Shown here: piece by piece, positions 7,360 through 30,491 of the stretch | Layout: each line of letters opens with the position of its first letter | Position numbering within the stretch: the first letter of the stretch is position 1 | Assembly (NCBI RefSeq): GCF_036919815.1 | Contig: NZ_JBALCE010000051.1 | Span: 4,819 to 68,818 of the forward strand | Direction: 5' to 3' | DNA from: Nostoc sp. | GTDB taxonomy: Bacteria > Cyanobacteriota > Cyanobacteriia > Cyanobacteriales > Nostocaceae | DNA: 64,000 nt | Program-made: the position numbers and the translations under genes | The notes under the pieces: generated by a model | Seen by the model: only the letters and a program-made list of their open reading frames with translations | Databases searched by the model: none | Told to the model about the DNA's origin: nothing

Positions 7360-7499
7360 TTTGAACTGATTGCGGATAGAACTAAATGAAATCTTTCTTT
7401 ACAGCTTATTATCTCTAACTATATGAGTCTCATTCATCCTTCTAGTTTAGGAGTTAGACTAATCCCAATGGAGAATTTTGAACCGAAAGAGAACGGAGA

Positions 7500-7534: not shown

Positions 7535-7575
7535 AGAGTGGCGAGCAAGGGGAGAATAATAATGCCCCATGCCCC

Positions 7576-7917
7576 ATGCCCAAAACACAATTGCTTTTAT
7601 ATTTGATTCCGATCATCGGCTTTTTTCCGTCCTTGTGGACTCTCTATCAAGGCCAGGGTAGTCGGGAACAACTTGCGATTAGTCGTCTGTCTATTACTTT
7701 GGCACTTATTTGGCTGTTGGGATATCTATTATTAGCTAGCGGAGCAGCAACTTCAGATTTTTTGACGCTACGTCTATTTATCCTCAATAGCTTTCTCACA
7801 TCGGGTTACTTTTTAGTGAGTGTCTGGTTGATTTTGCGGCTGATGCAGGGCAAATCTGGGCGTTTACCAGGCTTTAGTACTTTAGCAGAACGAGTGCTTG
7901 GCAAGTATTTATCTTAA
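7576..7917 (+). CDS. Small membrane protein (3-4 predicted TM helices), function unknown
   Basis: Hydrophobic segments LLLYLIPIIGFFPSLW, LALIWLLGYLLLA and FLTSGYFLVSVWLILRL. I start at ATG 7576 because the upstream part of ORF 7423-7917 is translated repeat DNA. Confidence 0.4.
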   Translation: MPKTQLLLYLIPIIGFFPSLWTLYQGQGSREQLAISRLSITLALIWLLGYLLLASGAATSDFLTLRLFILNSFLTSGYFLVSVWLILRLMQGKSGRLPGFSTLAERVLGKYLS

Positions 7918-9838: not shown

Positions 9839-10903
9839 TTATACTGGTACAAATGCTGCTGACACTAACTGTCTGAGTTGTTGGAGTTTAGCTGCTACCA
9901 CACCATTGGTTAATAATTCTTCTGCTTTCGCTAAACCCTCTGGCATATCTGGAGAAATACCACTCCGCCATAGGTAAAATCCGCCATTCCACAAGGCTGT
10001 TTGCATTAGTTCACCTGGTTTACCTGCTAAAACCTGCTGAATATCTGCCACCAGCTCTTCAGTAGTTCCAAGGGGTACGTTCTTGGTAGTAAAGCCGTAA
10101 TCACGCGGTACGAGGTGCAATCGTTCTACCTCTTGGGATGCTACGGCTGAAGATAAGCTGATGATTGCAGTGCGATCGCGCGGTAAGTCGCAACTACCTT
10201 CCAATCCTTTGACTAATGTAAATTTTGTTACTCCCCGCAGCCCCAGAGCTATCTGAAACATCCCTTCTGTCGGCGGATGAACAAACCCAGCAATTACGTG
10301 AGCATCCCCAGCATAAGGACACCAAATTAGCTCCATTGTCGCCAAGGGCGGACGTTTGCCGAGTTGGTCGCGGTACTCCCAAATACTTGTAGTTAAGGGA
10401 AAATGCTGAGGTAGATAAATAAAGCCGATTCCCGTTTGCTCAAATACTTGCTGGGTTTTTGCTAGTGGTAGGGTAGTCCAATCGACTCCTAAACCCTGCC
10501 AAATATCTATTAGGGGTAAGCCGTACTTAGTTGGTAAGCGATCGCCACCGTGCATTATTACTGGTTGTCCAGCTGCGGCGAGTAGTAAAGCTGTTACCGG
10601 ACTGATTGGTGCTGTGCGTGTTCTACCATCATAGGGGATGCCAAGAGCGATCGCAGGTCGTGCAGAGACGATTGGTTGCAGTTTTGGCCCCAGTTCCTCA
10701 TAAGCATCCAACATTCCCGCTAACTCTTCCCCCGTAGGACGCTTGATTCGATGAGCAATCAAAAACGCTCCGATTTGGGCTGGTGTAGCTTCACCCAGCA
10801 GCATCATTTTAGTAGCGGTGGCTGCTTGGACGCGAGTTAAATTCTCGGCTGTATGCTTTCCGCTACCTACTTTTTGGAGTAATTCCCGAAATACATTGCT
10901 CAT
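9839..10903 (-). CDS. cnaT: Anthranilate phosphoribosyltransferase-like protein (glycosyl transferase family 3), CnaT-type
   Basis: TrpD-like N-terminus (LTRVQAATATKMMLLGEATPAQIGAFLIAHRIKRPTGEELAGMLDA). Its 354-aa size and its position next to ntcB match cnaT (all0601) of Anabaena PCC 7120, which is required for nir operon expression. Confidence 0.65.
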   Translation of the reverse strand: MSNVFRELLQKVGSGKHTAENLTRVQAATATKMMLLGEATPAQIGAFLIAHRIKRPTGEELAGMLDAYEELGPKLQPIVSARPAIALGIPYDGRTRTAPISPVTALLLAAAGQPVIMHGGDRLPTKYGLPLIDIWQGLGVDWTTLPLAKTQQVFEQTGIGFIYLPQHFPLTTSIWEYRDQLGKRPPLATMELIWCPYAGDAHVIAGFVHPPTEGMFQIALGLRGVTKFTLVKGLEGSCDLPRDRTAIISLSSAVASQEVERLHLVPRDYGFTTKNVPLGTTEELVADIQQVLAGKPGELMQTALWNGGFYLWRSGISPDMPEGLAKAEELLTNGVVAAKLQQLRQLVSAAFVPV

Positions 10904-11070: not shown

Positions 11071-12018
11071 TTAAGAAGCCGATCGCTGCTGATCAATTTG
11101 TAATGGGATATTTTCGCGCACGATTTGCCAAAAGTGCTTAATGGGGGGAATTTGCAGACGGTCTTGAGTTGTTACCATAACTACCCGACGAGTCAAACTG
11201 GAACCATCTGCTAAACCACTATTACTATTGCTGGCTAGGGAGCGAATCGCCAGGGTAGAATCAAGACGAGCTTCTACTAATGCTGATTGAGGTAGCAAAG
11301 CTATCAGTTGTCCTTGACGCACGACACCCCGGAAGGCATCTAGGGTATTTACCTCTAAAGCCGCCTGGAGTTTAGCTTCCATTCGCTCAAATCTATCTTG
11401 TATTAAGCGCTGCATCCCATAACCATCTTTAAAAACCACTTGAGGATAACGAATTACCTGCAACCAAGGGACACATTCATATTGGGCTAGGGGATGATTG
11501 GCTGCGGTTAGAATTTCTATCGGTTCATCATAAAGTACTTCTACCACCATTTCTCTACCAGTGGTTAAAAAGCGATTATTCATCACAATTGCTAAATCCA
11601 CCAATCCATCTTTGAGGACTTTCAGGGCGCGATCGCTTCCCAATGAAGTCACCCGCAATTGCACCTCTGGATAATCATGACAAAATTTTTGCAACACTGG
11701 TGGTAAGTAAGATCCACATACGGAGTGAATCGCAGCAATACAAAGTTCTGGTTGCTTTCCGGCGATTAAATCAGCTAATTCTTCTGTAGCTGTCTGCCAT
11801 TCTTGGCAAATTTTGCGGACACGGGGGAGTAAAGATTCACCTCCTAGTGTCAATTTTCCATGACTAGTTCTGTGAAACAGTTCTACACCCAAATCTGCTT
11901 CTAATGCCTGGATTTGGCGACTAATTGTTGATTGGGTAACACCACATTTTCGCGCTGCTTGTTGAAAGCTGCCGGTTTGGGCGATCGCTAGAAAGGCTCG
12001 CAACTGCTCTAGGCGCAT
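11071..12018 (-). CDS. ntcB: LysR-family transcriptional activator of nitrate assimilation
   Basis: LysR HTH MRLEQLRAFLAIAQTGSFQQAARKCGVTQSTISRQIQALE. It is 315 aa and lies upstream of, and divergent from, nirA alongside cnaT, as ntcB does in Anabaena/Synechococcus. Confidence 0.7.
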   Translation of the reverse strand: MRLEQLRAFLAIAQTGSFQQAARKCGVTQSTISRQIQALEADLGVELFHRTSHGKLTLGGESLLPRVRKICQEWQTATEELADLIAGKQPELCIAAIHSVCGSYLPPVLQKFCHDYPEVQLRVTSLGSDRALKVLKDGLVDLAIVMNNRFLTTGREMVVEVLYDEPIEILTAANHPLAQYECVPWLQVIRYPQVVFKDGYGMQRLIQDRFERMEAKLQAALEVNTLDAFRGVVRQGQLIALLPQSALVEARLDSTLAIRSLASNSNSGLADGSSLTRRVVMVTTQDRLQIPPIKHFWQIVRENIPLQIDQQRSAS

Positions 12019-15239: not shown

Positions 15240-16838
15240 ATGACAGACACTGCAACTACCACCACCAGCCTGAATAAGTTCGAGAAGTTGAAAGCAGAAA
15301 AAGATGGACTCGCCATCAAGAGTGAGATAGAGAAATTTGCCGCCCTGGGCTGGGAAGCAATGAACGAAATAGATCGTGATCATCGACTCAAATGGGTGGG
15401 CGTATTTTTTCGCCCAGTTACCCCAGGTAAGTTTATGATGCGATTGCGGATGCCCAACGGGATTCTTACCAGCAGTCAAATGGGTGTTTTAGCTCAAGTG
15501 GTGCAGCGTTACGGAGATGATGGCTGTGCTGATATTACTACCAGACAGAATATTCAATTACGGGGGATTAGGATTGAAGATTTACCAGATATCTTTAATA
15601 GATTTGACGCAGTTGGTTTAACTACTGTCCAGTCAGGGATGGATAATGTCCGCAATATTACAGGTGATCCCGTGGCGGGGTTGGATGCAGATGAGTTGTA
15701 CGACACGCGAGAGTTGGTACAGCAAATTCAAGATATGCTCACCAACAAAGGGGAAGGAAACCCAGAGTTTAGCAATTTACCACGGAAGTTTAATATTGCG
15801 ATCGCAGGCGGACGAGACAATTCAGTTCACGCTGAAATCAACGATTTGGCTTTTATTCCAGCATTTCAAGAAGCAGGGGAGCAAAATTTAGCCCCTGGCC
15901 ATTCCTATGAAAAAGTTTTCGGGTTTAACGTTTTAGTAGGTGGCTTTTTCTCAGCTAAACGTTGTGAAGCGGCGATTCCTCTCAATGCTTGGGTGGCTCC
16001 AGAAGATGTGGTAACTGTATGTAGAGCGGTTTTGGAAGTCTTTCGTGATCATGGGTTGCGTGCTAATCGGCAAAAATCCCGCTTAATGTGGCTAATTGAT
16101 GAATGGGGTTTAGAAAAGTTTCGAGCAGAAGTAGAAAACCGTTTAGGTAAATCATTATTACCCGCAGCCGCAAAAGATGAAATCGACTGGGAAAAACGCG
16201 ACCACATCGGGGTATATAAACAAAAACAACTAGGATTAAATTACGTAGGCTTGAACATTCCCGTCGGGCGACTGGATGCCGAAAATATGTTTGAAATTGC
16301 TCGTTTAGCGAGAGTTTATGGCAATGGCGAAATCCGTTTAACTGTTGAACAAAACATTGTTATCCCCAACATTTCTGACTCGCGTTTAGAGACATTTTTA
16401 ACAGAGCCTTTGCTGAAAAGGTTTTCCATTGATCCTGGTTTACTGACGCGATCGCTAGTATCTTGCACAGGCGCACAATTTTGCAACTTTGCCCTCATCG
16501 AAACCAAAAACCGCGCCCTGGCAATGATTAAAGCCTTAGAAGAAGAGTTAACCTTCATCAATCCAGTGCGAATTCACTGGACAGGTTGCCCCAATTCCTG
16601 TGGACAGCCCCAAGTTGCAGACATTGGCTTGATGGGAACTAAAACTCGCAAAAATGGCAAAACCTTAGAAGGTGTTGACATATATATGGGCGGCAAAGTT
16701 GGCAAAGATGCCCATTTAGGAACGTGCGTTATTAAAGGCATACCATGCGAAGACTTAGAGCCAGTATTGCAAGATTTACTCATCAAAAACTTTGGGGCAA
16801 AACTCAAGCAGGAAGCCTTAGTAGTTAGTAATTGCTAG
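15240..16838 (+). CDS. nirA: Ferredoxin-nitrite reductase
   Basis: Sirohaem/4Fe-4S cysteine clusters SCTGAQFCNF and TGCPNSCGQ. Typical NirA N-terminus NKFEKLKAEKDG...HRLKWVGVFFR. Start taken at ATG 15240 (MTDTATTT). Confidence 0.9.
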   Translation: MTDTATTTTSLNKFEKLKAEKDGLAIKSEIEKFAALGWEAMNEIDRDHRLKWVGVFFRPVTPGKFMMRLRMPNGILTSSQMGVLAQVVQRYGDDGCADITTRQNIQLRGIRIEDLPDIFNRFDAVGLTTVQSGMDNVRNITGDPVAGLDADELYDTRELVQQIQDMLTNKGEGNPEFSNLPRKFNIAIAGGRDNSVHAEINDLAFIPAFQEAGEQNLAPGHSYEKVFGFNVLVGGFFSAKRCEAAIPLNAWVAPEDVVTVCRAVLEVFRDHGLRANRQKSRLMWLIDEWGLEKFRAEVENRLGKSLLPAAAKDEIDWEKRDHIGVYKQKQLGLNYVGLNIPVGRLDAENMFEIARLARVYGNGEIRLTVEQNIVIPNISDSRLETFLTEPLLKRFSIDPGLLTRSLVSCTGAQFCNFALIETKNRALAMIKALEEELTFINPVRIHWTGCPNSCGQPQVADIGLMGTKTRKNGKTLEGVDIYMGGKVGKDAHLGTCVIKGIPCEDLEPVLQDLLIKNFGAKLKQEALVVSNC

Positions 16839-16959: not shown

Positions 16960-16990
16960 CACTAAATATCACTAATCCAAGTGTATTGCC

Positions 16991-17179
16991 TTAAAAGCTC
17001 AATGTTTAGTCTCAAAGGTGCAACTTCCGAGTTCAAAGGTGCAACTTCCGAGTTCAAAGGCTCAACCTCCGAGTTCAAAGGTGCAACTTCCGAGTTCAAA
17101 GGTGCAACTTCCGAGTTCAAAGGCTCAACCTCCGAGTTCAAAGGCTCAACTTCCGAGTTCAAAGGCTCAACTCCGACTT
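16991..17179 (+). repeat. 21-bp tandem repeat array (about 7 full units plus degenerate end units) between nirA and nrtP
   Basis: Units tcaaaggtgcaacttccgagt / tcaaaggctcaacctccgagt abut from 17012 to 17158. A degenerate unit lies at each end. Confidence 0.95.
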
Positions 17180-17212
17180 TTCTCTGTGTTTTATTCAATT
17201 AGAAAGATTAGA

Positions 17213-18715
17213 ATGCTTAAAAAATTATTTTCATTCAGCGATCGCTACCGCATCTTACATCAGACTTGGCTTGCTTTTTTTCTCACCTTTGTTTGTTGGT
17301 TTAACTTTGCTCCCTTCGCTACAACCATTGGCAGAGAGCTACATTTAGCGCCAGAGCAAATTAAAACTTTAGCTATCTGTAACCTTGCTCTCACAATTCC
17401 TGCACGGCTAATTATTGGGATGCTTCTGGATCGTTTTGGCCCCAGAATCACCTACTCAATGCTGTTGATGTTTGCGGTTGTTCCTTGTTTGGCGACGGCG
17501 CTAGCGCAAGATTTTAATCAATTAGTCATCAGTCGTTTGCTGATGGGAATTGTTGGATCTGGGTTTGTGGTTGGTATTCGGATGGTGGCGGAATGGTTCC
17601 AGCCGAAGGAGATGGGAATTGCTCAAGGTATTTATGGCGGCTGGGGTAACTTTGGGGCTTTTGGCGCAGAGTTTGCCTTACCGATGCTGGCAGTTTCTAC
17701 TAGCTTTTTCGCTGGTGGTGCTTCTAACTGGAGGTTTGCGATCGCACTCACAGGGATCATTGCAGCCATCTACGGCGTAATTTATTACAATAGCGTCCAA
17801 GATACGCCCGCAGGGAAAGTCTACAAGAAACCTCAGAAGAATGGTTCTCTGGAAGTGACCAGTATTAAAAGCTTCTGGGCGATGATTGTCTCAAATTTTG
17901 GCTTGATTTTCGCCTTGGGTTTATTAGCTTGGCGCTTGGAACAAAAGAACATTCACTTCCTGACTCTGAGCCAAATGTATTTTACTTGGTTGCTATTAGC
18001 AGGATTGTTTGCTTATCAAAGTTACAAAGCTTGGGAGGTAAACGGAGAACTTCTAATTGGCAAGAAAACTTACGCTCCATCGGAACGCTTCCAGTTTGGT
18101 CAAGTAGCTTTACTCGAATTTACTTACATAACTAGCTTTGGTAGCGAACTAGCAGTTGTTTCTATGCTCCCAGCATTTTTTGAAAAAACCTTTGCTTTAG
18201 AGCATGTCGTCGCTGGGATGATTGCCGCTACCTATCCCTTCTTAAATTTGGTTTCTCGTCCTAGTGGTGGCTTAATTTCTGATAAACTTGGCTCACGTAA
18301 ATGGACAATAACAATTATCACTGCTGGCATTGGTGTTAGTTATTTAATGGCACATTTTATTAGTAGTAGCTGGCCGATTCCGCTAGCGATCGCAGTTACA
18401 ATGTTTGCCGCTTACTTTGCCCAAGCTGGCTGCGGTGCAACCTACAGCATCGTACCTCTAATTAAGAAAGAAGCCACTGGACAAATTGCCGGTAATGTAG
18501 GAGCTTACGGTAATTTTGGCGGCGTAGTTTACCTAACAATTTTTAGCTTAACCGACGCTCCCACACTATTTAGCACAATGGGTATAGCTGCACTAATCTG
18601 CGCTTTTATGTGTGCCTTCTTCCTCAAAGAACCAAAAGGTTCCTTTGCCGCTACTTATGAAGGTGAATTACCAGAAACTGCAACTAAAAACCCTATTTTA
18701 TTAACCGAAGAATAA
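17213..18715 (+). CDS. nrtP: MFS nitrate/nitrite permease (NarK/NrtP type)
   Basis: 12-TM MFS protein with nitrate-signature motifs GGWGNFGA and AGNVGAYGNFGG. It lies directly after nirA, as in Nostoc punctiforme. Start at ATG 17213, because the upstream part of ORF 17018 is translated tandem repeat. Confidence 0.85.
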   Translation: MLKKLFSFSDRYRILHQTWLAFFLTFVCWFNFAPFATTIGRELHLAPEQIKTLAICNLALTIPARLIIGMLLDRFGPRITYSMLLMFAVVPCLATALAQDFNQLVISRLLMGIVGSGFVVGIRMVAEWFQPKEMGIAQGIYGGWGNFGAFGAEFALPMLAVSTSFFAGGASNWRFAIALTGIIAAIYGVIYYNSVQDTPAGKVYKKPQKNGSLEVTSIKSFWAMIVSNFGLIFALGLLAWRLEQKNIHFLTLSQMYFTWLLLAGLFAYQSYKAWEVNGELLIGKKTYAPSERFQFGQVALLEFTYITSFGSELAVVSMLPAFFEKTFALEHVVAGMIAATYPFLNLVSRPSGGLISDKLGSRKWTITIITAGIGVSYLMAHFISSSWPIPLAIAVTMFAAYFAQAGCGATYSIVPLIKKEATGQIAGNVGAYGNFGGVVYLTIFSLTDAPTLFSTMGIAALICAFMCAFFLKEPKGSFAATYEGELPETATKNPILLTEE

Positions 18716-18818
18716 TCAACCGAAGGATGAAGTAGTGAAATTAACTATCAGATTTAAATTAGGTAACTTTACACTTGATCCTTCTATAACAGTCCTCAAT
18801 ACAGTTAAGTTAAGCATT

Positions 18819-18872
18819 TCTTCCTTCTCTTCCTTCTCTTCCTTTGCGTACTTTGCGTACTTTGCGGTTCGT
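18819..18872 (+). repeat. Nonamer tandem repeats (ttccttctc x2-3, tttgcgtac x2-3)
   Basis: Read directly. They are part of the repeat-filled 440-nt gap that replaces most of narB. Confidence 0.85.
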
Positions 18873-19155
18873 TAAAAAAAATGACTTTGACAAAGAGTTA
18901 AGCCTTAACCCAAGCGCATTGTTCTATAGCAGTCCTAATTCATAAAAATCTCTTTTTCTTCTCTCTGCGGTTCGATAAAATCAGCTTTTTAGCGATTTTT
19001 GCGTAAGTTCTATTTATGAAAAAACGAACCGCATACTCCTACGGAGAAGCAAGCTACGCGCAGCGTCTCGTTAGAGAAGGACGCAAAGGACACAAAGTAA
19101 TAAGAGTTTCAAAGAGTTTTTCTGTAACACACAAAATTCTCAAACAGTCGCTACA

Positions 19156-19404
19156 AAAGCGAAGTTTCCTGCTAAAGTGACAAAAGCGATCGCGCCTGGT
19201 ACAGTTTTTGTCCCCATGCACTGGGGTTCGCTGTGGGCAGACAATGCCGAAGCTAACGCCCTCACCCATCCAGAATCTTGCCCCGATTCGCTGCAACCAG
19301 AATTAAAAGCTTGTGCAGTGCAGCTAATACCAATTTTGGTAGAAGTTACAATCAAAAATCATCAACTCCAGTCCTCACAATCGTCAGCTGCAAAGTGTAC
19401 CTAG
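19156..19404 (+). pseudogene. narB: 3' remnant of assimilatory nitrate reductase
   Basis: [55 protein letters not shown] matches the C-terminal molybdopterin-dinucleotide-binding domain of cyanobacterial NarB. Nothing NarB-like (e.g. the N-terminal Cys cluster) lies between 18716 and 19155. Confidence 0.65.
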
Positions 19405-19674
19405 AAAGTGGTAATTTCTAACCAGCAATAGGTAATTTTGTCAATAATCAATAGTCAATACTTATGATAATTTTTTATGACTCTCTACTTTTGACTGATA
19501 CCAATTATCATATCTAAATAGGTAAAATCTCTAGTAACTAGAGGTTTTACTAACGTCGATTTTAATTATGGATAAAGAATAAAAAACAGAGAGAAAACTT
19601 ACAAAGTATCGGCAAGGCATCTTTTTTTAATCCTCTAGATATATCTATGGGATTTTCTTTTATTTTAGAATCGG

Positions 19675-20142
19675 GTGCAGCATATGAAAAAACTACTGAG
19701 GCGAATTCTAGTAACTACCAGAGATGAGAATTTCATGCACGTTATCGAAAATATAGAAGTGCTAGTTTCTAAAGTTCTATCTATTTTTATGGTAATTGTA
19801 ATTTTGGTAGCGAGCGCAAATTTAGGAATATTTATTTTTAGAGAGTTATTTACAGTGCCTTATGGTACATTTAACACAACCTTATATAAAATTTTCGGTT
19901 TATTTTTAAATATTTTAATTGCTTTAGAGATTTTAGAAAATATTACAGCCTATTTACGAAAACACGTTTTTCAGGTTGAATTAGTCATTGTTACTTCTTT
20001 AATTGCTGTAGCCAGAAAAATTATTCTTCTTGACTTTGACAAGGTTGGAGGTCTTGATATAATTGGTCTAGGTATAGCTATTTTGTCCCTATCAATTAGT
20101 TATTTAATAATTCGGATCAGTAATTCCAAAGATGCAAGTTAA
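19675..20142 (+). CDS. PsiE-like (phosphate-starvation-inducible E family) membrane protein
   Basis: Four hydrophobic helices and the segment LNILIALEILENITAYL...VIVTSLIAVARKIILLD resemble PsiE family proteins as I recall them. The start is uncertain (GTG 19675, ATG 19684 or a later ATG). Confidence 0.4.
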   Translation: MQHMKKLLRRILVTTRDENFMHVIENIEVLVSKVLSIFMVIVILVASANLGIFIFRELFTVPYGTFNTTLYKIFGLFLNILIALEILENITAYLRKHVFQVELVIVTSLIAVARKIILLDFDKVGGLDIIGLGIAILSLSISYLIIRISNSKDAS

Positions 20143-20275
20143 ACAAAAGATCCAACAAAATATTGTGGATTTAAAAACATTTTTTCCCATTCTTTACTCC
20201 CCATGCTCACCCGGCAACTTTGGGTTTTTCGAGCAACAGCATAAATTTTGAATTTAGAATTTGGAGAGAAGCGAC

Positions 20276-20728
20276 GTGACAGATTTCTTTGAATTTGAAG
20301 CAGACTTTGTTGATTCTTTGCGTTGCATCCCCATGCAGGTGCGTTGCAAATTAGATACCTGTGGCATCAAGCTAAAATTGTCTGATTGGAATCAAATGAC
20401 TACAGCCGAGCGTCAAGCTTTAGTCGAATTACCTTGCACTACAGAAACCGAAATTCAGTCTTACGGCAACTATATCCAGGAGTTAATTGTACAACGCACA
20501 GGTATACCAGCAACAAAATTGCCCATTGAGCCTCATCCCGCATGGCTAGACTCTGCCACTGTACCAGCCAGCCTTCAGGAAAAAGCTCAAGAAATAGGTG
20601 TAACCCTGACACAGCAACATTGGGCAGCTTTAACGCCTTTACAGCGTTTTGCCTTGATTAAACTCAGCCACCCAGGACATGAAAACAAAAATTTTCCTAC
20701 AGCGATCGCAGAATTTCATTTACTTTAA
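20276..20728 (+). CDS. narM: Nitrate reductase-associated protein
   Basis: FEFEADFVDSLRCIPMQVRCKLDTCGIKLKLSDWNQM...ERQAL resembles the NarM / nitrate-reductase-associated family. GTG 20276 is preceded by ggagag. The ORF track starts at TTG 20261. Confidence 0.55.
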   Translation: MTDFFEFEADFVDSLRCIPMQVRCKLDTCGIKLKLSDWNQMTTAERQALVELPCTTETEIQSYGNYIQELIVQRTGIPATKLPIEPHPAWLDSATVPASLQEKAQEIGVTLTQQHWAALTPLQRFALIKLSHPGHENKNFPTAIAEFHLL

Positions 20729-21191
20729 TTAGTCAATAGTCATTAACAATCGCCTAGCGTGCCTTTGCCACTCCTTCGCAATTTTTCACTCGATTTCTAC
20801 TAAGACAAAACTAGTCAATTATCATCGGCAAAAATAACTGACAACAGACGACTGAAAATTATATATTTTGGGAATCAAACTAAATGCAGTAAAAACTACT
20901 ATTTTTTGATAAATTGTCGTGTGTTTAATTTAGCACTTAGAGTATTAAAAGTACACTACCGATACAATCGGATTCATCTGCGTAACAAGCCAAGTTGAGG
21001 ACAAACTATCACTAGATCGAATACTTATTCACATTAGGTAAAAGAATTTGAAATTTTGCATCTGGAAATTTTAAATTTCTTAGCAGGAAGTGAAGCTATA
21101 GTGGATTTAGCAATGCTGCTGTTAATGTGGCTAAGGTTAGTCCTGCTGCCAAATTATGTGAAGAATTAGTTTAGAAACGCACTTCTTATCG

Positions 21192-22574
21192 ATGACAGGC
21201 AAAAACGCAAGACATAATGCATTTCTGCGGCTAGTGTCTGGTAATGGGGCAGATTTGGGATCAGAATCTCGCTACTCGCTGCCCCCCAGTAAAGAAATGG
21301 TAATTGGACGCGATCCCAGCTGCCAAGTTGTCTTGGATGCCATGACCTACCGAATGGTATCTCGTCGTCATGCGGTGGTTCGTCCCCTTTCTCTATCTCC
21401 AGATAGCAAATTCAGCTGGGTGTTGTGTGATTTGAATAGTGCTAATGGTACTTATTTGAATGGACAACGCTTGTATGAATGTCAGGAATTGCACCCAGGC
21501 GATCGCATTTCTCTCGGTGCTGATGGCCCACAATACGTTTTTGAGTACGAGTTTACCTCAGTGACGCCGGCCACGACAGTTAACCAACTTACACCATTAC
21601 CTTCGGCGACGAACTACCACAACCACACGCAATTAAAGCAGCCAGATTCTGTTAGCTTTACCCAGCTTTTCCCGATTATTTCCACTGGTAAAGATTTAAC
21701 TCGGAAAGCTTACCTCATACCGGGAATACTGACCGTAATCTTTGTAGTGTTAATGTTTGCTACAGTCGGTCAGCCCCAAGCTAATCAAGTTATTGTCGCA
21801 ACTTACATCGCCTTCGCTGCCTACTATTTTGTTTACCAACTTTGCGGAAAACAGAAGCCTTGGTGGGTGCTAATAGCTGCGGCGTTGGGTACGATGCTGA
21901 TTTTGCTCAGTCCAGTGTTGGGTTTATTTATCTTCGTGTTTCGCGGCATCCTACCTGGAAACTTGCCCTCGTCCCAAGAATCTATTACCTTCACAGAGTT
22001 ACTGGTGCGGATGTTTTTTGGCGCTGGCTTGATGGAGGAATTACTCAAGGCATTGCCTGTACTAGGGGCTTTTGCCATCGGTAGAATGTTGTCTTCACCT
22101 TGGCGGGAACGTATAGGGGTTTGGGAACCTCTAGATGGTATTCTCCTGGGAACAGCTTCTGCTGTGGGCTTCACTCTCTTGGAAACTCTCGGACAATATG
22201 TGCCAGATATTACTCAAAATATATCGCAACAGGTGGGTACAGGGGCTGCGGGTCAACTGGCGGGTTTACAACTGCTAATTCCGCGAATTTTAGGCTCTGT
22301 AGCCGGACACATGGCTTATAGTGGCTATTTGGGTTATTTTATCGGGTTAGCTGTCCTCAAACCGAGGAGAAGTTGGCAAATTCTTTCTATTGGTTATCTT
22401 AGTGCCTCTGCGCTCCATGCTTTGTGGAATGCTACAGGATCAATCAATGCCTTGCTGTTGGTCGTTGTTGGGGTATTATCTTACGCCTTTTTGATGGCGG
22501 CAATTCTCAAGGCACGGGCGCTATCACCGACGCGATCGCAAAATTTTGCTACCCGATTTATTGGCCCAAAATAA
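21192..22574 (+). CDS. FHA domain fused to a PrsW-type intramembrane protease
   Basis: FHA: VIGRDPSCQVVLD...VSRRHAVV...LCDLNSANGTYLNGQRL...GDRISLG. Multi-TM C-terminal half with PrsW motifs GLMEELLKALP, GHMAYSGYLGYFIG and HALWN. Confidence 0.75.
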   Translation: MTGKNARHNAFLRLVSGNGADLGSESRYSLPPSKEMVIGRDPSCQVVLDAMTYRMVSRRHAVVRPLSLSPDSKFSWVLCDLNSANGTYLNGQRLYECQELHPGDRISLGADGPQYVFEYEFTSVTPATTVNQLTPLPSATNYHNHTQLKQPDSVSFTQLFPIISTGKDLTRKAYLIPGILTVIFVVLMFATVGQPQANQVIVATYIAFAAYYFVYQLCGKQKPWWVLIAAALGTMLILLSPVLGLFIFVFRGILPGNLPSSQESITFTELLVRMFFGAGLMEELLKALPVLGAFAIGRMLSSPWRERIGVWEPLDGILLGTASAVGFTLLETLGQYVPDITQNISQQVGTGAAGQLAGLQLLIPRILGSVAGHMAYSGYLGYFIGLAVLKPRRSWQILSIGYLSASALHALWNATGSINALLLVVVGVLSYAFLMAAILKARALSPTRSQNFATRFIGPK

Positions 22575-22600
22575 GAATTCAAAATTGTACCCTTACTCTT

Positions 22601-22743
22601 AAGCAAGCTACGCGTGGTCACTGAGCAGTTCGACAAGCTCACTGTGCCACCTTGCCGTACCACTTCCCTGCGGGACGCTGCGCGAACGTGGAAGCAAGCT
22701 ACGCGCAGCGTCTCGTAGAGAAGTGTAGCATCTCGTAGAAAAG
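22601..22743 (+). repeat. Composite of small dispersed repeats
   Basis: It contains gtggtcactgagcagttcgacaagctcactg (22614-22644) and gcgcagcgtctcgtagagaagtg (22703-22725). Both recur inside the GT2 coding sequence at 31754-31823. Confidence 0.85.
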
Positions 22744-23015
22744 AAAATGACAGTATTTATCTCTTGGGATAGATGGCCTAGTTTGAATATCAGCGTATCG
22801 TGAATTCATTCTGGGTTAACTATACCTACAAAAATAAAAATCATTAAGCTTGTTGCAAAAGTCTTGATTTTTGACTCTCCGTAAGGCAAACCAATATCTT
22901 TGCAAGATATGCCTCTGAACAGAGTAAGTGCAAAAGGCGAGCTTATGCGAACACAACCCATGATCAAAATTTTAGCTTTCTCTATTTTTCCTCTCACTTG
23001 TCACCTGTTGCCGAT

Positions 23016-23663
23016 TTATGGTTCCGACTGAGACTTGTTGAGTTGAGTCAAAGCATAGGAAGCGATCGCTAAACTAAGCTTTGCCTTCTCTACTTCTGAT
23101 AAAGCTGTCCACTCACTATTTTGAAAATTACTCATCGCCGATGCCGCGTTTTGCGATTCGCTACTTCGCATCGCGTAAGTAAAAGGACGAGCCAAAACTA
23201 AAAGATCCTCTGTTCCCCAAGTTGGTAGCACTGTCTGAACGCACTCAACCAGTTGCTCACCGATTAATTGTCCAGCAGCAAATATCTCAGCAGCTTTGCT
23301 AGCGATCGCGTTGAGCAATACTTGGGGGACAGAGGCAGAAAAAGTAGTACGTAATGTTTCTTGAAGATTAACCACTACTGCCTGTTGTTGGCTGTGATTG
23401 TCGTCTGGTGTAGAAGCAATACCAGACCAAAGTGTGTCTAGATGGCTGTAAAAATCTGGCGATTGCCTCGTCAGTTCTTCCTCAAGGAAATCTGGCATTC
23501 CGAACTGTTGTTCTAGTTCCTGAAAATAAGCTTCTGATTGCTCATCACCTGGATTCCAGGGATAGGTAGCATCCTCTGGTTCTAATAAGGCTTTTAAAAA
23601 CTCTAATTCTATTTGAGATGGCAAAGAAGAGAAAGTCTCTGAGCCGTTAATTTTTTTAGCCAT
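23016..23663 (-). CDS. Acidic hypothetical protein downstream of the CHAT-FHA gene
   Basis: 215-aa ORF on the same strand as the two upstream genes. No recognisable motifs. Confidence 0.45.
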   Translation of the reverse strand: MAKKINGSETFSSLPSQIELEFLKALLEPEDATYPWNPGDEQSEAYFQELEQQFGMPDFLEEELTRQSPDFYSHLDTLWSGIASTPDDNHSQQQAVVVNLQETLRTTFSASVPQVLLNAIASKAAEIFAAGQLIGEQLVECVQTVLPTWGTEDLLVLARPFTYAMRSSESQNAASAMSNFQNSEWTALSEVEKAKLSLAIASYALTQLNKSQSEP

Positions 23664-23784
23664 TTTTTATGCCTCAATATTATATGGTAGTATTGATAAC
23701 TACAATTCCTCAGAAGAGATTTCCGCAAAAACAGATTTCAAAAGCTGATGCTCAACATCAAAATCCATTTCTGCGATCGCTCTA

Positions 23785-25365
23785 CTAGGAGTCCTGAATA
23801 ATAAACTCCCAAGTTTCACCTCTGGCACTTCCAAACTTTAACTGCATCCCCGATTTCAAGGGGACTTCCTCTCGGAGGATTTGTTGCCAACCATTAAGTC
23901 CTAAAAACCAGGTTGTGCCGTAGGTGGAAAAATCTTGCAAGTAATAAGTTCGCATGAATGTAGCATCAGTAACAGTATTACGGCAGAAGATTTCGGCGTG
24001 GCGTTTGGATACAGATGGTTCGGGGATGACAATATCATTGTCGTTTGTGCGACCGATGCGGGTAACTCCATAACGCAACAACCAGGTTTTACCTTTTGGA
24101 GTCAGCGATCGCAAAGAAGCAGTTAGAAGCGGGGAACCTAGATCAGGAATGGCTGTGTCTGGTATTTCCGTAATACCTTCATCCAGATTCTTAATGAGTT
24201 CGCCATTAAAATCTGGATGCAGGTAGAGCACAGGCAAAGTCCAAGCCGGCTGATTAAATTTATACAATGTTAACAACTCTTGCCTAGCTTGTGCTACGGC
24301 TTCATCAATTGGTTTGTGCGATCGCAAAGCTTTGGTAAAGGCTTGAATAAAACTGTGGCTTTCGTGGTCAGCAATTTCATCGCGCATTCCCAAAACCGCA
24401 GGCACACCATGACGAATTAGTACTTCTGCTAAACTGCTGGTAGGTATGGCTTGATGATTCCTAGCAGCCGGTTGTGCGCCCCAACAGGCGTTAAAAACCG
24501 CTAGTTTCACACCTGTACGGGTGAGTACTTGCGCTAATTCTATCCCATTTAGGGGCATATCTGGTCGCAAAAATAGTAAGCCCCCATCTGGGTCTGGCAA
24601 ACCATGTCCAGCGTAAAAGAAAACATTGTATGCTTTGGTTTCTAATTCATCAATCAACTGCTGGGGAGTTGGTTGTAAGAGTTGATTCACTATACAAGGT
24701 GCATATCTTTGGGAATTACTACCCACGGACGTATCTGCAAGAATTTGCTGTAAGATTGCAGCTTCTTGTTCCAGTTGCAGGTTTTGATCATGACCTAAAA
24801 CCAGCAGGATAGTTAAAGCTTTGTCAGTTCCCAAATCCGGTAAGGCGTCAACTTCAGTGCTGGTGCGACTAAATAGCAAATCTGGGGAGAGAGACATAGC
24901 CGATTGACCCGGCTCAGACTGCATAATTTCCCAAGGGAAAGCGATAAGATTTGGGTCACGAATTTCTAGTCGAAAGCGCAAACGTGTATGCTGACCCATT
25001 GCAATACCGCGACTACGTTCTAGACTACCGAGAATTTGTCCGTCGAATACCCAGCGCCATAAATTCATTCCCAAGTATTGCATCAGACGACTGCTGTAGG
25101 GACTAGTGGTTTCACCTGAAGGGGGTGAAATCCAATCTATGGGCAATGGGTTGGCTTTTTGAGATATTGAGTTTGAGGAAATATCGAGGTGACTATGACC
25201 AGCAAACATCTGTTGCCATTCTTGCCAGACTTGGGTGAGTTCAGCAGGCCATACACAGTCACGTAAAACGTAGCCACTGGGATAGGGAGCCTCGACCACC
25301 CAAATGGCGAAGTTGTCAGTGCCAGTGTTTAAAAGACGGGCGATCGCCAAATTCAGGGATGGCAT
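23785..25365 (-). CDS. CHAT (caspase-like) protease domain fused to a C-terminal FHA domain
   Basis: Caspase-type dyad candidates FFYAGHG and VFNACWG. C-terminal FHA: TRIGRTNDNDIVI...VSKRHAEI...LQDFSTYGTTW...LKSGMQLKFG. Confidence 0.7.
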   Translation of the reverse strand: MPSLNLAIARLLNTGTDNFAIWVVEAPYPSGYVLRDCVWPAELTQVWQEWQQMFAGHSHLDISSNSISQKANPLPIDWISPPSGETTSPYSSRLMQYLGMNLWRWVFDGQILGSLERSRGIAMGQHTRLRFRLEIRDPNLIAFPWEIMQSEPGQSAMSLSPDLLFSRTSTEVDALPDLGTDKALTILLVLGHDQNLQLEQEAAILQQILADTSVGSNSQRYAPCIVNQLLQPTPQQLIDELETKAYNVFFYAGHGLPDPDGGLLFLRPDMPLNGIELAQVLTRTGVKLAVFNACWGAQPAARNHQAIPTSSLAEVLIRHGVPAVLGMRDEIADHESHSFIQAFTKALRSHKPIDEAVAQARQELLTLYKFNQPAWTLPVLYLHPDFNGELIKNLDEGITEIPDTAIPDLGSPLLTASLRSLTPKGKTWLLRYGVTRIGRTNDNDIVIPEPSVSKRHAEIFCRNTVTDATFMRTYYLQDFSTYGTTWFLGLNGWQQILREEVPLKSGMQLKFGSARGETWEFIIQDS

Positions 25366-25544
25366 GGATTCATTAAATTAAAAGCTTAAAATAAATAATT
25401 TCAAATAACAATTCTCCAAAGTGAAAATTTTCTACTTTTTGACCTTGTAAATTTTTACTCTGGTTGTTACCTGTTATTATTCCAGGTTTTTACAAGTTTA
25501 TCGAGCTGTTAAGGACTGACAAATAAAAAAATACTCAACTATTG

Positions 25545-25676
25545 CTTGTGGGGTGGGCAGCGTTCGACTGAGCGCTCACGCCGTACCCCTCCGGGGAAGC
25601 AAGCTACGCGTAGCGTCCCGCAGGGAAAGTCTTGCCCGCCTTTTGCTATGGGCGCTCGTGTCGCCCACCCCACAAG
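25545..25676. mobile_element. MITE-like element with 14-nt terminal inverted repeats
   Basis: Terminal repeats cttgtggggtgggc (25545-25558) and gcccaccccacaag (25663-25676). The internal 65 nt (25560-25624) recur inverted at 37691-37755 with 2 mismatches. Confidence 0.75.
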
Positions 25677-25712
25677 TAGTAGTAATTTATTTATTGGAAA
25701 TCCCTTATTTGA

Positions 25713-27989
25713 TTAAGTTGGACTGGTGTCAGGTGCAGTTGGTTGAGTAACTGGCGGTTGCGTGACACTTCTACATGGATTTGGTGCGTCTGATTGTAAA
25801 ACAGAGACGCCAAAACTCTTCAATTGGGACAAGTTCAGCGATAGTGTTGCTGGCAAAGGTTTTGGATTTTGGGGAACCGAGATAATTACTGCTGGGTTAT
25901 TAGTATTAGCTGAACTTTGTGTGCTTTTATTGGCACAGACTCGCATAGACACCGAAAAATCCTCAGAAGCAGGTTGGGGATTTGATTTTTTCTGAATAAC
26001 TTCTAAAAAAGTCCCACGGGGAAGTGATTGGTTGTTTCCGAAGGGGATTTCTTTGTTGGTTTTAATTACCCAACCAGGAGAAAGGTTAGCAAGCGATCGC
26101 GCTGTGGGTGTCGCTTCGATGGTAGGATTTAGAGTTGGTGTGGGATTGGAAACAAGTGGAAATATCCCTGATGGCGATCGCAGTTGCTTCACGAAGAATC
26201 CTAAAGTCCCTGCTGCGATCACAAATATTAACGGAACTATCCACTGTAGCGGCAATTGGCGAGTTTTGATCGGCTCCTTTTCGGGAATCACCTGAGTTTT
26301 ATGGTTTGCGCTACCTAAAAGTGTCGGATCTGTCGCTCTGGACGGGAAATCAATAGCTTTCGGGGAATAACTCTCTGTAATCACTGCTTTAATGGTGATT
26401 TCTGGTTCCCAGTATTGGACTTGATAGTGGACTAAAGCGACGGTGACATTATCGTGTCCATTTTTAGTATTAGCGATTTCGACTAATCTATCGGCAACAT
26501 TTACTATATTTGTCTCCCCAAGCAGAATCGGTAAAATTTCTGTTTCCCAGCACTCCTCCACCCGATCAAAATCACTCAAACCATCGGATGTGAGCAGAAA
26601 AACAGCATCTTCATCGAGCATAAACCGTCCCGAAGTGGGATGCAATGAAGTGCTGGAACCCATCCCCAAAGCCTGAACCAGAGAGCCAGCAGCACTCTGT
26701 TGCACAGCCTCGCGGTAAATCGCATAACCTAGCCGCACTTCGCGGGAGGCGACATCATCATCAAGGGTAACTTGATAACAGCCGTGGCGTGTAATCCAGT
26801 AGGCACGACTATCACCAACATGGGTAATGTACATTTCGTGTGCAACAGGCAAGGCCATGACTAAAGTCGTACCCATGCGTTGACGCCCTTGGCGATTTTC
26901 AGCGTCATTGCGCTGACTAATTTTGTCGTTGGCAATTGCCACTGCCTTTTCTAGGTCATCAAGCAGCAGTGAAGGGTCTATGTGGTCGTAGGGAACTTTT
27001 GTTAGTTGCTGTACCTGCTGCTGAATCGTTTCAATCGCTAAATTTGAGGCGACATTGCCGCCCTCGTGTCCACCGATGCCATCACAGACAATTGCTAAGG
27101 CTGTTGGCTGGGGTGGTTTGCTGACCAGAATACCACTGGGTGGGCTACAGGCATCTTCGTTACGTTGGCGACTTGGGCCAGTCTCAGTTTTGGTGATAAT
27201 TTTGATCGTAGGTGTTTGCGATCGCCCTAACCCAGCCAGTCCCCGATCTAAAACTCCGATTAATTGATCCGTTGAATTCATCTCTCCCTGAATTAAGGAA
27301 AGGCTAACCTGATCAACAAATTCAGCTATAGCTGGTTTGGTATCACTGACCAACTGCTGCCAAAATTCACCTAATTGGGGCAACTCTGGTGATGTTGCGA
27401 CATCGAAACGCAAATCCAACAAACGTACTAATGATCCTTCTACCCGTAATACGTATGAGTCAAGTAAGCTAGAGGCGACACCTTCACTCGTCAGAGGTTG
27501 CCACAAATGAGCTATTTGCCATAACCAATTGAGTTGGCGCATTGATGTTGCATCACGCCAAGCGGTGGTTAACTCGCTACACAAATGCACTTGTTGGATT
27601 GTGTCATCTACTAATAGTGGCGGTTTTTCTAAGAGTAATATTTCTCGATGCTCAGTTCCGTCACCTACAAAAAGCACTCCATATAACTGCGGTACGTGTA
27701 AGCGGTAAGGAATAAGTCTCAAGTAAGCTTTGGGGATCTGGAGATTATCTAACTCAGGCGTTAGGGCTAATAAACCAGGCTTCGTATCTAAAAGAACAAA
27801 TTTGTCAAGGACTAAATAGCGATCGGCTAATATTTCTCCAGGGCTACCCACACTCGGGCCATCTACCACAGCCCAGAGGTAATTTTTGGGTAGGGGCGTG
27901 GAACATCGCTGGCAAAACTTGTGAGTCAGGGGGTTAGCAGCCTGACAATTTTCATTTGGACAGTAGAGCGTTGCCGCGTCATTTTCCAT
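25713..27989 (-). CDS. Zn-ribbon / PP2C Ser-Thr phosphatase / TM / Pro-Thr-rich tail protein
   Basis: N-terminal CPNENC...CQRC zinc ribbon. PP2C motifs IVCDGIGGHEGG, GTTLVMAL, HVGDSRAY, LLTSDGLSD and NGHDNVTVALV. One TM helix (WIVPLIFVIAAGTLGFFV). Confidence 0.8.
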   Translation of the reverse strand: MENDAATLYCPNENCQAANPLTHKFCQRCSTPLPKNYLWAVVDGPSVGSPGEILADRYLVLDKFVLLDTKPGLLALTPELDNLQIPKAYLRLIPYRLHVPQLYGVLFVGDGTEHREILLLEKPPLLVDDTIQQVHLCSELTTAWRDATSMRQLNWLWQIAHLWQPLTSEGVASSLLDSYVLRVEGSLVRLLDLRFDVATSPELPQLGEFWQQLVSDTKPAIAEFVDQVSLSLIQGEMNSTDQLIGVLDRGLAGLGRSQTPTIKIITKTETGPSRQRNEDACSPPSGILVSKPPQPTALAIVCDGIGGHEGGNVASNLAIETIQQQVQQLTKVPYDHIDPSLLLDDLEKAVAIANDKISQRNDAENRQGRQRMGTTLVMALPVAHEMYITHVGDSRAYWITRHGCYQVTLDDDVASREVRLGYAIYREAVQQSAAGSLVQALGMGSSTSLHPTSGRFMLDEDAVFLLTSDGLSDFDRVEECWETEILPILLGETNIVNVADRLVEIANTKNGHDNVTVALVHYQVQYWEPEITIKAVITESYSPKAIDFPSRATDPTLLGSANHKTQVIPEKEPIKTRQLPLQWIVPLIFVIAAGTLGFFVKQLRSPSGIFPLVSNPTPTLNPTIEATPTARSLANLSPGWVIKTNKEIPFGNNQSLPRGTFLEVIQKKSNPQPASEDFSVSMRVCANKSTQSSANTNNPAVIISVPQNPKPLPATLSLNLSQLKSFGVSVLQSDAPNPCRSVTQPPVTQPTAPDTSPT

Positions 27990-28562
27990 AGTTTTCCCAC
28001 CGATCAGCGATTGGCAATTTCTTTAACAGCATTAGTAGGGACAATCTAGACCGCTCATCTTTCTGAAATTTGACATACCCAGACTTTAGATGATGATTTT
28101 AGCTGGCGGATATCAGCAGGTGCTAATGCTTATTTATCCAAAGAATACGCTCCCAACTCAACCCGACAGCCTGATCATAGCTTCTATTGCTCTGTGACTC
28201 TCCATCAATAAAGCAACTAACTCCAACCCTGTCCCCAAAGCATAACCCAAGCATGACTATGTTATTTGCTTTTGCTGAATTACCCCATCATCAACAGACA
28301 GATAATGTTGGTATTTATTTAGTTTATAAGTAGGATAGCAACAATTAACTTTAATTAAGAATTAAGATAATTGAATATACTTTTGCCTAAAGTACCTGAC
28401 GAATCAAGAAAACCTCTCTTCTTCATCTCTCTCCTTGTAGGAGAGAGACTTTGAATGTTCTTCCTTAGAGCGTCGGCAAGGGGGTTAGGTTTTTGTTTGG
28501 GCTGATTCCGGATGACCGGAATTGTCACAAGGGTTCAGCCAGCCCGCTACCAACTATTGAGC

Positions 28563-28922
28563 TTATTGTTTGTCGTCAATTGCAACTTGGGGGACTCCCA
28601 TGCTGTAGTTAGTAACGCGGGCAGAGAGATTGTAGCTGAGTTCGCCGATTTGCAGGAGCGATCGCAGATAATGCTCTAAGTCTGACCCCACACGGCGTAA
28701 GTTATATTCTGTGAGGTCTACGCCACTAGATGCTTCTACTAGTTCATCAAATTTTCGGTAAACCTTTTGCAGCGCATCTTCATTCCAGTTAAATTCGTTA
28801 TCTGGGTCAATATCTAAGGTTAAAACCTGTTGACTAGGAATCAGTTCGCCATCCCGGTCAATTTCGCCTGCAAAAATGCGGACATGCCGGGTTGTGGACT
28901 TGAGCAACATTGGGTTATCCAT
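28563..28922 (-). CDS. ndhM: NAD(P)H-quinone oxidoreductase (NDH-1) subunit M
   Basis: MLLKSTTRHVRIFAGEI...LTLDIDPDNEFNWNEDALQKVYRKFDELV...DLTEYNLRRVGSDLE matches NdhM. The true start may be the second ATG (28910). Confidence 0.85.
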   Translation of the reverse strand: MDNPMLLKSTTRHVRIFAGEIDRDGELIPSQQVLTLDIDPDNEFNWNEDALQKVYRKFDELVEASSGVDLTEYNLRRVGSDLEHYLRSLLQIGELSYNLSARVTNYSMGVPQVAIDDKQ

Positions 28923-29774
28923 AAAAGGGTGTAAGTATTTGGGTGGATTACACTGAAATTATTGTAGACGTTATATCTGAAGCTTGAATGCTCTCAATTT
29001 ACAGCAGCTTTGAACAGTTTCAAAAGAGTATATTGAATGGGCATAAGTAAAAATATCACCTGTACTGATTAACTTAATACTTCTGTTAAGAGTTGAAGAC
29101 AAGGCTAACTGCTAGTACTGACAGTAGTCTAATTATTTTTCTGTAAAAATTACTGGCTAGAGTCTTTTTATTTAGGGTACTAATCTTACCTACTGCTAAG
29201 ATTTTTGGATTCATCAAGCCCAAAAGACAGTAGGGGCAGGCACTTGGCAGGAATAATTTGATCTGAGTACATTTTTTAATGGAGAACAAAAATTTTTACT
29301 TTAATAATTATAATCAGAAATTTATTCGGAATTTGCTGCTGATAAAAACGTACATCAAGTAATTTTACGGAATAGCGCTACATCGACCACTGGCTTTAAT
29401 AAACTCAAAAAACTTAAGCGGTTTTACTTACGTATAAACACCAAAATTAGAGTAACAAGTAAAACTCTTGTTGACGTTAACATAAAGTTGATGTAAAAAG
29501 GTTTAAAAAAGTCGAGCAACTTCTTACAGAAACTTTATTGTGTAGAATTTTAAAAACTGAATAATAGTTATGGCTTACCATAAGCTATATCTGGCACAGG
29601 AGCATCAAAATCTACCTTGAAAAAAAATACAGGAGAGTGAAATGGGATACAAAGGTGATTGATGAAGAAAAAGTCTTAATTGAAGCATTTTGGATTCAAA
29701 AAAGATATAAAGAATTTTGCTGGACATCTACCTCTTTAGCCTCATGACCACCAAGTAAAGGAATCTCAATAGCT

Positions 29775-30059
29775 ATGAACTCCAAAGCATTACCACGCCA
29801 AATAAATAATCTCGAAGTAGGTGTTTATGAGTGCGAAATACATCTCAAATTCCGGTTGATTGAGGAAAAGAGTCTATTGGGCGATCGCGAACAACTATTA
29901 CAGGTGTTACTTGATGCTTTAACCGAAGGTTCTGATGACTTTCTAGAGACGTTGCAAGCGTCCGTTAAAGCGCAGGAAGTGTCTGAGTTGAAAGCCTCAC
30001 CTCAAATGCGGCGCCAGCTAATGCGCTTGCGTAATGCTGCTGAAAATACCCAAACTTAA
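29775..30059 (+). CDS. Hypothetical protein (94 aa)
   Basis: ORF only. It is preceded by ~850 nt of AT-rich ORF-poor DNA. Confidence 0.35.
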   Translation: MNSKALPRQINNLEVGVYECEIHLKFRLIEEKSLLGDREQLLQVLLDALTEGSDDFLETLQASVKAQEVSELKASPQMRRQLMRLRNAAENTQT

Positions 30060-30355
30060 AGGTGTAATTTAAGTAGTTAAACAATGTGAATTGGGCATCA
30101 AAATCAAATATTGATCCCATACTTGCGTTGCCATAAAAACTTAGCAGTAAGTAGAATTCATAAAATATTGTGATTTCTACTTTGTGAAAGTCTTATTTAG
30201 CAGTACAAAGTCCCAGAAACAGTTTCCGCTATTAAAAACTTTGTAGCAAAGAGTACTGGTAGAATCTGAGAGCAAATTCAGCCGGGTGCATTTTACCGAG
30301 TTTTTATCAAAACATTGCAGGAATAACAAAACCCTGTGTCTTTACAGATGGGGAA

Positions 30356-30427
30356 AGGGAGACAAGGGAGATAAGGGAGATAAGGGAGATAAGGGAGATA
30401 AGGGAGATAAGGGAGATAAGGGAGATA
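30356..30427 (+). repeat. Nonamer tandem array (agggagata x8)
   Basis: Eight abutting 9-nt units, followed by caatgcc heptamers. It lies in the convergent gap 3' of the response regulator gene. Confidence 0.95.
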
Positions 30428-30491
30428 AAGAGAAAATAACCAATGCCCAATGCCCAATACTTCGACTTCGCTCAGTACAAGTGCCCAATGC

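Follow-up and report, generated by a model that had tools for sequence, protein, structure and literature searches.

In the window, that is, the whole stretch of 64,000 nucleotides of Nostoc sp. DNA analysed here, the nitrite reductase gene nirA and the permease gene nrtP are followed by a short piece of the nitrate reductase gene narB. The locus thus raises the question of whether this strain has lost its nitrate reductase and, if so, by what kind of event, how long ago, and under what selective regime. It is very likely that most of the strain's only narB went in one illegitimate deletion of ~2.03 kb, and that this happened very recently; the simplest reading of the loss is that it was neutral, or close to neutral, in a habitual N2-fixer. 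The features of the locus are summarized in Table 1. The evidence for the deletion, and the alternative explanations that bear on it, are discussed in detail below.

Table 1. Features of the nitrate assimilation locus (window positions; a slash marks the point of joining in the junction sequence).
Feature	Position	Strand	Evidence or remark
cnaT-like gene (TrpD-like glycosyltransferase family)	9839..10903	-	NCBIfam PRK07394, residues 1-348 vs profile 1-345 of 348, E 5e-165
LysR-type regulator in ntcB position	11071..12018	-	full-length LysR-family matches; NtcB identity inferred from synteny
nirA, ferredoxin-nitrite reductase, intact	15240..16838	+	NF007125 equivalog, 914.5 bits, profile 4-512 of 513
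nrtP, NarK-family MFS nitrate/nitrite permease, intact	17213..18715	+	TIGR00886, 355.7 bits, full profile
native nrtP-narB intergenic spacer	18716..19155	+	homologous to the corresponding spacers in relatives; carries short repeats, both dispersed and tandem
deletion junction GCTACA/AAAGCG	19155..19156	+	blastn breakpoints and sequences; blunt, no microhomology
narB 3' remnant (pseudogene)	19156..19404	+	codons ~665-741 (~76 codons)
psiE-family membrane protein gene	19675..20142	+	Pfam PsiE, E 2e-33; same position 3' of narB in relatives
narM, nitrate reductase maturation gene, intact	20276..20728	+	TIGR02664, 203 bits, profile 1-145 of 145

The narB remnant

The original prediction held that narB is reduced to a 3' remnant of ~75 codons, and this is borne out. 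The translated remnant aligns to the C-terminus of NarB: it is 97.3% identical in amino acid sequence to residues 666-740 of the 741-residue Nostoc NarB from the congeneric genome P0002 (tblastn), and it matches the Pfam domain Molydop_binding (PF01568) at positions 58-110 of 110 (E 2.9e-12). The match covers the second half of the domain only, and a complete PF01568 C-terminal domain is not present. At the DNA level, identity to intact narB genes reaches 96.9%. The NCBIfam models give weak end-of-protein matches to assimilatory nitrate reductases and nothing more. Descent of the remnant from narB is established by the amino acid identity together with the syntenic slot between nrtP and psiE-narM.

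The other parts of the enzyme are missing. The N-terminal 4Fe-4S cysteine cluster (CxxCxxxC..., compare the MSEFTKTLCPYCGVGCG start in relatives) is absent from 18716-19404 and from the rest of the genome, and alignment with relatives places the cluster segment within the deleted block. A Pfam search of the remnant finds no match to the catalytic domain PF00384. Since the 4Fe-4S domain and the entire Mo-bisMGD catalytic domain are gone, and only half of the C-terminal cap is left, the stub is a dead remnant. It is also without a start codon or ribosome-binding site of its own, the sole exception being a fortuitous GTG at 19177; at most, the stub is probably transcribed as an untranslated tail of the nirA-nrtP mRNA.

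The reading frame of the remnant runs a few codons beyond the usual narB stop position, to a TAG at 19402-19404. Loss of the stop codon by decay (TAA to TCA) was considered as a cause and rejected: the same TCA occupies the usual TAA site in the narB-intact relatives L028 and L035, and thus it is no sign of decay.

The deletion junction and the nrtP-narB spacer

The 440 nt between nrtP and the remnant were originally described as filled with repeats. The repeats are real, and include heptamers, nonamers and inverted repeats; for example, CTTTGCGTA nonamers lie at 18834-18868, with inverted partners at 19023-19100. The repeats are not, however, a filler that replaced narB. When 18716-19155 is aligned with four Nostoc relatives, it proves to be the ordinary nrtP-narB spacer, repeats included, and the CTTTGCG-type tandem repeats and their inverted partners are also present in relatives such as G013. 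Nothing meaningful emerged when the region was scanned for Rfam families, promoters and terminators.

In other Nostoc sequencing runs, contig depth is very high over 18810-18911 and 19014-19115, which indicates multi-copy elements. After window position 19135, within the narB leader, closely related strains in runs X10 and X14 continue differently, with the small palindromic element GTAATTGTACAGACGCGATTAATCGCGTCT. Small mobile repeats have a hot spot in the nrtP-narB spacer.

The endpoints of the deletion can be placed by comparison with intact loci, of which L081 serves as the reference here. Window 19082-19155 is 94.6% identical to L081 5742-5815, and the spacer alignment reaches ...CAGTCGCTACA. 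On the 5' flank, the match to relatives ends at GTCGCTACA, 42 nt 5' of the narB ATG; on the 3' flank, it restarts at AAAGCGAAG, at about narB codon 665. After ...CAAACAGTCGCTACA, the relatives read TCTGAGGTTGCACAATCAAAATAACAAAATGGTACAACAGCC followed by the ATG of narB, whereas the window reads AAAGCGAAGTTTCCTGCT directly, that is, narB from codon ~665 onward. Compared with L081, the window lacks 5816-7846, or 2,031 nt; in the contig of a relative, 2,052 letters lie between the positions equivalent to 19155 and 19156. What is missing is the last ~42 nt of the narB leader, with the ribosome-binding site, the start codon, and codons 1-664 of 741. The event is one simple deletion.

Evidence that the deletion is real

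The genome is a draft of 133 contigs, the sequence just 5' of the junction is rich in repeats, and source reads carrying the junction were not found among the runs searched. It could therefore be argued that the gap arose in assembly or binning and that the organism has a full narB at this locus. Several observations make this extremely improbable. A Logan contig from run SRR28386221, found by an exact look-up of the window NarM, agrees at 100% identity with the 3,585 nt of window 19056-22640. It spans the junction, with 100 nt to the left of it, and encodes a 75-residue Molydop_binding gene 5' of psiE-narM-prsW. An exact look-up of the window NrtP in public assemblies gave no match. The Logan contig was made from raw reads, probably of the same sample, by another assembler; as evidence it is technically, but not biologically, independent. 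Furthermore, the sequences on either side of the junction are both unique and have no repeat or k-mer in common, so that there is no basis for a mis-join in the assembly graph. No orphan narB piece occurs in the assembly at E<=10, and analogous narB deletions with different endpoints are found in other genomes. An assembly or binning artefact is thus excluded for practical purposes, and with it the assembly collapse that the original prediction had named as its own possible refutation. An intact narB allele on an unbinned contig of the source sample may nevertheless co-occur with the deletion allele.

Absence of another nitrate reductase gene

Whether loss of narB means loss of nitrate reduction depends on what else the genome encodes. 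The assembly comprises 6.55 Mb and is 99.36% complete. The whole-genome tblastn search that had been proposed, run with NarB at E<=10 and including contig ends, found neither a second narB nor a further narB fragment. A search of the genome for PF00384 finds one locus only, on contig C6. It encodes a 758-residue molybdopterin oxidoreductase of the FdhF/YdeP family (TIGR01701, 663 bits, above the cut-off), which is 27% identical to NarB and falls below the cut-off in every nitrate reductase model.

One may still imagine that nitrate reduction is kept by another enzyme, encoded either by a second narB on a plasmid or in DNA missing from the assembly, or by the gene for the C6 molybdoenzyme. The assembly is not closed, moaA is intact, and the C6 protein has a weak partial match to NasC (199 bits vs a cut-off of 1100). 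However, little room for a second gene is left by the completeness of the assembly; narB is single-copy in all surveyed Nostoc and lies directly 3' of nrtP wherever nrtP was captured, except in G014, where the operon is split. The C6 protein, for its part, passes the FdhF/YdeP cut-off and fails every nitrate reductase model; relatives have this same paralog alongside narB, which means that it did not take the place of NarB. Retention of nitrate reduction by such an enzyme is therefore highly improbable. The narB of the window was the strain's sole gene for the assimilatory ferredoxin-dependent nitrate reductase, and it is now null.

Genes surrounding the remnant

The cnaT-like, ntcB-like, HEAT, and Rieske genes are divergent from nirA-nrtP-(narB)-psiE-narM. 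End-to-end matches to curated models confirm that nirA and nrtP are intact; NrtP has 500 residues, the same length as in relatives. As predicted, narM, ntcB and cnaT are also retained, each with a match to a full-length model, where ntcB is named by synteny and cnaT by position and family. With narB gone, narM would be left without a client enzyme. Pairwise dN/dS against relatives is 0.10-0.17 for nirA and 0.07-0.09 for nrtP, the same range as among narB-intact relatives. The two genes are under normal purifying selection, with no relaxation.

The spacer between nirA and nrtP is filled by a tandem array with a 21-nt unit (16962-17198; translated as ...SEVEPLN... or ...KGATSEF...), which gives rise to spurious open reading frames on both strands.

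Elsewhere in the genome, nifH is intact (contig C118). A second nifH-like copy lies at C80:14087-14911, and its match includes a TAG. Identical partial nifH pieces are found at contig ends (C111/C41 and C93/C40), which suggests collapsed or multiple nifH copies.

Age of the deletion

The deletion looks very recent and specific to this strain. It is judged recent because the remnant has accumulated no substitutions of its own, because close strains have narB at the breakpoint, and because dN/dS of nirA and nrtP is normal. The remnant has no window-private substitution in 255 nt compared with 87 homologs. Its identity to the nearest intact narB genes is 96-97%, as against only 91-94% between nrtP and its counterparts in the nearest relatives. 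Immediately before the position equivalent to 19156, runs X8, X10, X14 and X32, which share 62-65% of 31-mers with window 21000-30900, read ...GAAGTGCGATCGCGTCGGGGT, which is narB sequence (also ...GTAGAAGTGCGATCGCGTCGGGGT). For X10 and X14 the loose ends at 19156 were used, since narB of their main strains is >10% diverged from L081 and mapping to the intact L081 is uninformative. Searches of public genomes and metagenome contigs found the junction word nowhere else. Likewise, the run searches returned no run with the junction, the best being close strains that share 0.57-0.65 of 31-mers.

Erosion of narB in other Nostoc

Full-length narB is present in ~120 of 127 Nostoc species representatives, including most metagenome-assembled genomes (MAGs) from lichens. 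At least five other species show independent narB erosions, which with the window makes at least six of 127. The extent of the damage varies. G114 (P9119 bin 5) lacks narB codons 210-663 and has intact nirA, nrtP and narM. G115 (P6620 bin 4) lacks codons ~49-614 and has no nirA-nrtP upstream. In G124 (P12537 bin 5), both nrtP and narB are fragmentary, and only a frame-disrupted 3' end of nirA remains before the contig ends. G137 (Green_W.bin.2) has lost nirA and retains only narB codons 606-664, and G117 has no narB at all. In G136, the locus is too fragmentary to judge. Three of these genomes, P9119 bin 5, P6620 bin 4 and P12537 bin 5, are MAGs assembled from thalli of lichens (PMC12559999); every named case whose origin is confirmed comes from a lichen thallus. 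Searches of the accessible literature on Nostoc genomes from cyanolichens turned up no account of narB loss in lichen Nostoc.

In a tree of nirA and nrtP, the narB-intact L028 and L030 lie between the window and G114, and G137 is far off; the deletions are therefore independent. An ancestral deletion common to the window and G114 was considered and rejected, given that the 5' ends differ, the 3' ends are 7 nt apart, and the two narB-intact lineages intervene. A further candidate for narB loss, L099 (P3068 bin 7), was also rejected: it belongs to G014, in which an intact narB lies on a different contig, so that the operon there is split and not eroded. In G014 (P3068 bin 7; L013, L099), nirA-nrtP lies on one contig with unrelated DNA downstream, and the intact narB-psiE-narM lies on a separate contig, preceded by a gene for an MHYT-domain histidine kinase.

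Loss of narB can also be seen within a sample. When run X14 is placed on L081, a minor Nostoc strain shows another internal narB deletion, of 1,623 nt (6061 to 7685), at a depth of ~25 vs ~240 for the flanks. Deletion alleles of narB thus segregate in natural samples.

Two further observations concern the eroded genomes. First, all the narB-eroded Nostoc examined (L108-L111, from G115, G124, G114 and G137) have kept an intact narM, with 87-92% identity. This retention could reflect the recency of the losses or a second role of NarM. Second, the Nostoc contig of G137 (L101/L111; nrtP-psiE-narM-prsW), ~90% identical to the window, is deposited as 'uncultured Acetobacteraceae bacterium Green_W.bin.2', which is probably a mis-binned or mislabelled MAG.

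Breakpoints and the HIP1 palindrome

Two copies of the HIP1 palindrome (GCGATCGC) lie near the 3' breakpoint, at L081 7831-7838 and 7877-7884. In L081 coordinates, narB resumes at 7847 in the window and at 7840 in G114, whereas G137 breaks after 7842 and G124 after 7874. The breakpoints of the window, G114 (L031) and G137 (L101) consequently fall within the same 8 nt, just 3' of one HIP1 and 2-9 nt from it, and that of G124 falls 40 nt further along, beside the second HIP1. Of 13 breakpoints in the narB region, four are <=9 nt from a HIP1 edge, compared with 3.4% of positions expected (binomial P ~8e-4, post hoc); for three lineages within one 8-nt span, the simulated P is ~0.008, also post hoc. 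An insertion-sequence scenario for the clustered breakpoints was tried and rejected, since the ~725 nt after the G137 breakpoint are psiE and its upstream region.

The clearest case of a HIP1-to-HIP1 event is found in another gene. In G124, nrtP (L025/L109; L081 4526-5181) has an in-frame 648-nt deletion exactly between two direct copies of HIP1, and one hybrid HIP1 copy is left at the junction. The junction in the window contains no HIP1, and only its 3' endpoint is near one (9 nt).

The association between HIP1 and the breakpoints is thus a lead, not a mechanism. A bolder reading is that narB is a recurrent, possibly selected knock-out in lichen-associated Nostoc, and that the deletions are channelled by a fragile site at the HIP1 pair near codon 660. 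We consider this combination decidedly unlikely. If it were true, a hyper-abundant cyanobacterial palindrome would be tied to natural gene-inactivating deletions, and nitrate-insensitive N2 fixation would be favoured in cyanolichens. The clustering of breakpoints beside HIP1 is in itself a small, testable lead on how such palindromes affect genome stability.

Consequences of the loss and its selective regime

The consequences for the cell can be predicted from gene content. With the end of the narB leader (~42 nt) and codons 1-664 of 741 removed, NrtP should still import nitrate and nitrite, and NirA should still reduce nitrite to ammonium. The step from nitrate to nitrite would be lost, and as a result the cell would have to draw its nitrogen from ammonium, nitrite, or, by way of its nif genes, N2. 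Unreduced nitrate would neither feed the cell nor, via its products, repress heterocysts and nitrogenase. This gene content, with no second narB, fits the original prediction that the locus can take up nitrate and nitrite and reduce nitrite, but not nitrate.

The same prediction went on to propose relaxed selection for nitrate use in an N2-fixer or symbiont. In favour of this proposal, nifH is intact, the relatives of the strain are mostly lichen cyanobionts, and narB has eroded in at least five other species. On the other hand, ~120 of 127 species keep narB, the deletion is young, and nirA and nrtP show no relaxation. Since most lichen MAGs keep narB, symbiosis alone is no predictor of its loss; sequences related to the window are found in lichen, soil and biocrust runs. 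The ecological part of the prediction is plausible and has been borne out in part.

A different possibility is that the loss was adaptive. In Anabaena, repression of nitrogenase by nitrate requires that the nitrate be reduced. A narB knock-out could hence make heterocysts and N2 fixation insensitive to nitrate, and such knock-outs could have been selected repeatedly in symbiotic Nostoc. The number of independent erosions is consistent with this idea, as are the origin of three of the eroded genomes in lichen thalli, the further narB deletion in a minor strain of a lichen-type run, and the fact that in the window and in G114 narB alone is affected while nirA and nrtP are kept. Adaptive loss is nevertheless unlikely. 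Intact narB is the rule in the genus, lichen MAGs included. In G124 and G137, nirA and/or nrtP are eroded too, and in G115 nirA-nrtP is absent beside the remnant, a pattern that suggests decay of the pathway as a whole and not a loss aimed at narB. The deletion in the window is specific to one strain and too young to carry a signature of selection. Finally, the contrast between lichen MAGs (~3-5 of ~50) and others (0 of ~30) is small and not significant.

The loss is most simply explained as neutral or nearly neutral in an organism that habitually fixes N2, a selective regime that we infer from the genomic context. It is an ordinary kind of gene loss, which recurs independently in a few related lichen-associated Nostoc. 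The allele is of interest for three reasons. As a naturally occurring narB null in a Nostoc that fixes N2, it provides a ready-made 'nitrite yes, nitrate no' genotype. It may also serve as a marker of how fast nitrate assimilation goes when N2 fixation covers the nitrogen demand. Lastly, the recurrent erosions of narB or of the whole nirA operon are relevant to the question of whether the cyanolichen symbiosis can dispense with nitrate use or even disfavours it.

Comparison with known systems

Among the closest counterparts of the locus is the Nostoc punctiforme-type operon, which is intact in ~120 Nostoc species (for example, L081, L028 and L015). It has the same gene order and the same repeat-rich nrtP-narB spacer. 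The window differs in that 90% of narB, together with its leader and start, is deleted, which would leave a system for nitrite only.

With regard to the mode of deletion, HIP1-associated excision in cyanobacteria was reportedly described by Robinson et al. in 1997. The nrtP deletion of G124 is of this kind, and the breakpoints of the window, G114 and G137 resemble it in their proximity to HIP1. The window differs in having no HIP1 at its 5' end and no microhomology at the junction.

Nitrite-only gene sets are found in picocyanobacteria, among which there are Prochlorococcus and Synechococcus strains with nirA and no narB. Like the window, they combine nitrite reductase and a permease with the absence of nitrate reductase, a combination that predicts growth on nitrite and not on nitrate. 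In the picocyanobacteria, however, these are stable, ecotype-level differences in non-diazotrophs, whereas the window carries a fresh deletion allele in a diazotroph.

Loss of nitrate reduction is also found in N2-fixing cyanobacterial symbionts. Richelia intracellularis has lost nitrate assimilation (Hilton et al. 2013, as cited in PMC12362246), and in Trichormus/Nostoc azollae the MoCo genes are pseudogenes, so that nitrate reduction is likely absent (PMC12362246). Like the window strain, these are heterocystous N2-fixers that lose nitrate reduction by deletion or pseudogenisation. Theirs are old, lineage-wide losses in strongly eroded genomes, and the losses also hit nitrite reduction, transport, or MoCo synthesis. 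The window strain shares with symbiont-type erosion the loss of nitrate reductase, and not the added loss of nitrite reductase, transporters, or MoCo synthesis. Its genome of 6.55 Mb is among the smaller ones in the genus, where the range for most is 6.3-10.8 Mb, but is not strongly reduced. In contrast to Richelia and T. azollae, the loss in the window concerns one gene, in one strain, and is very recent, and nirA, nrtP, narM and moaA are all intact.
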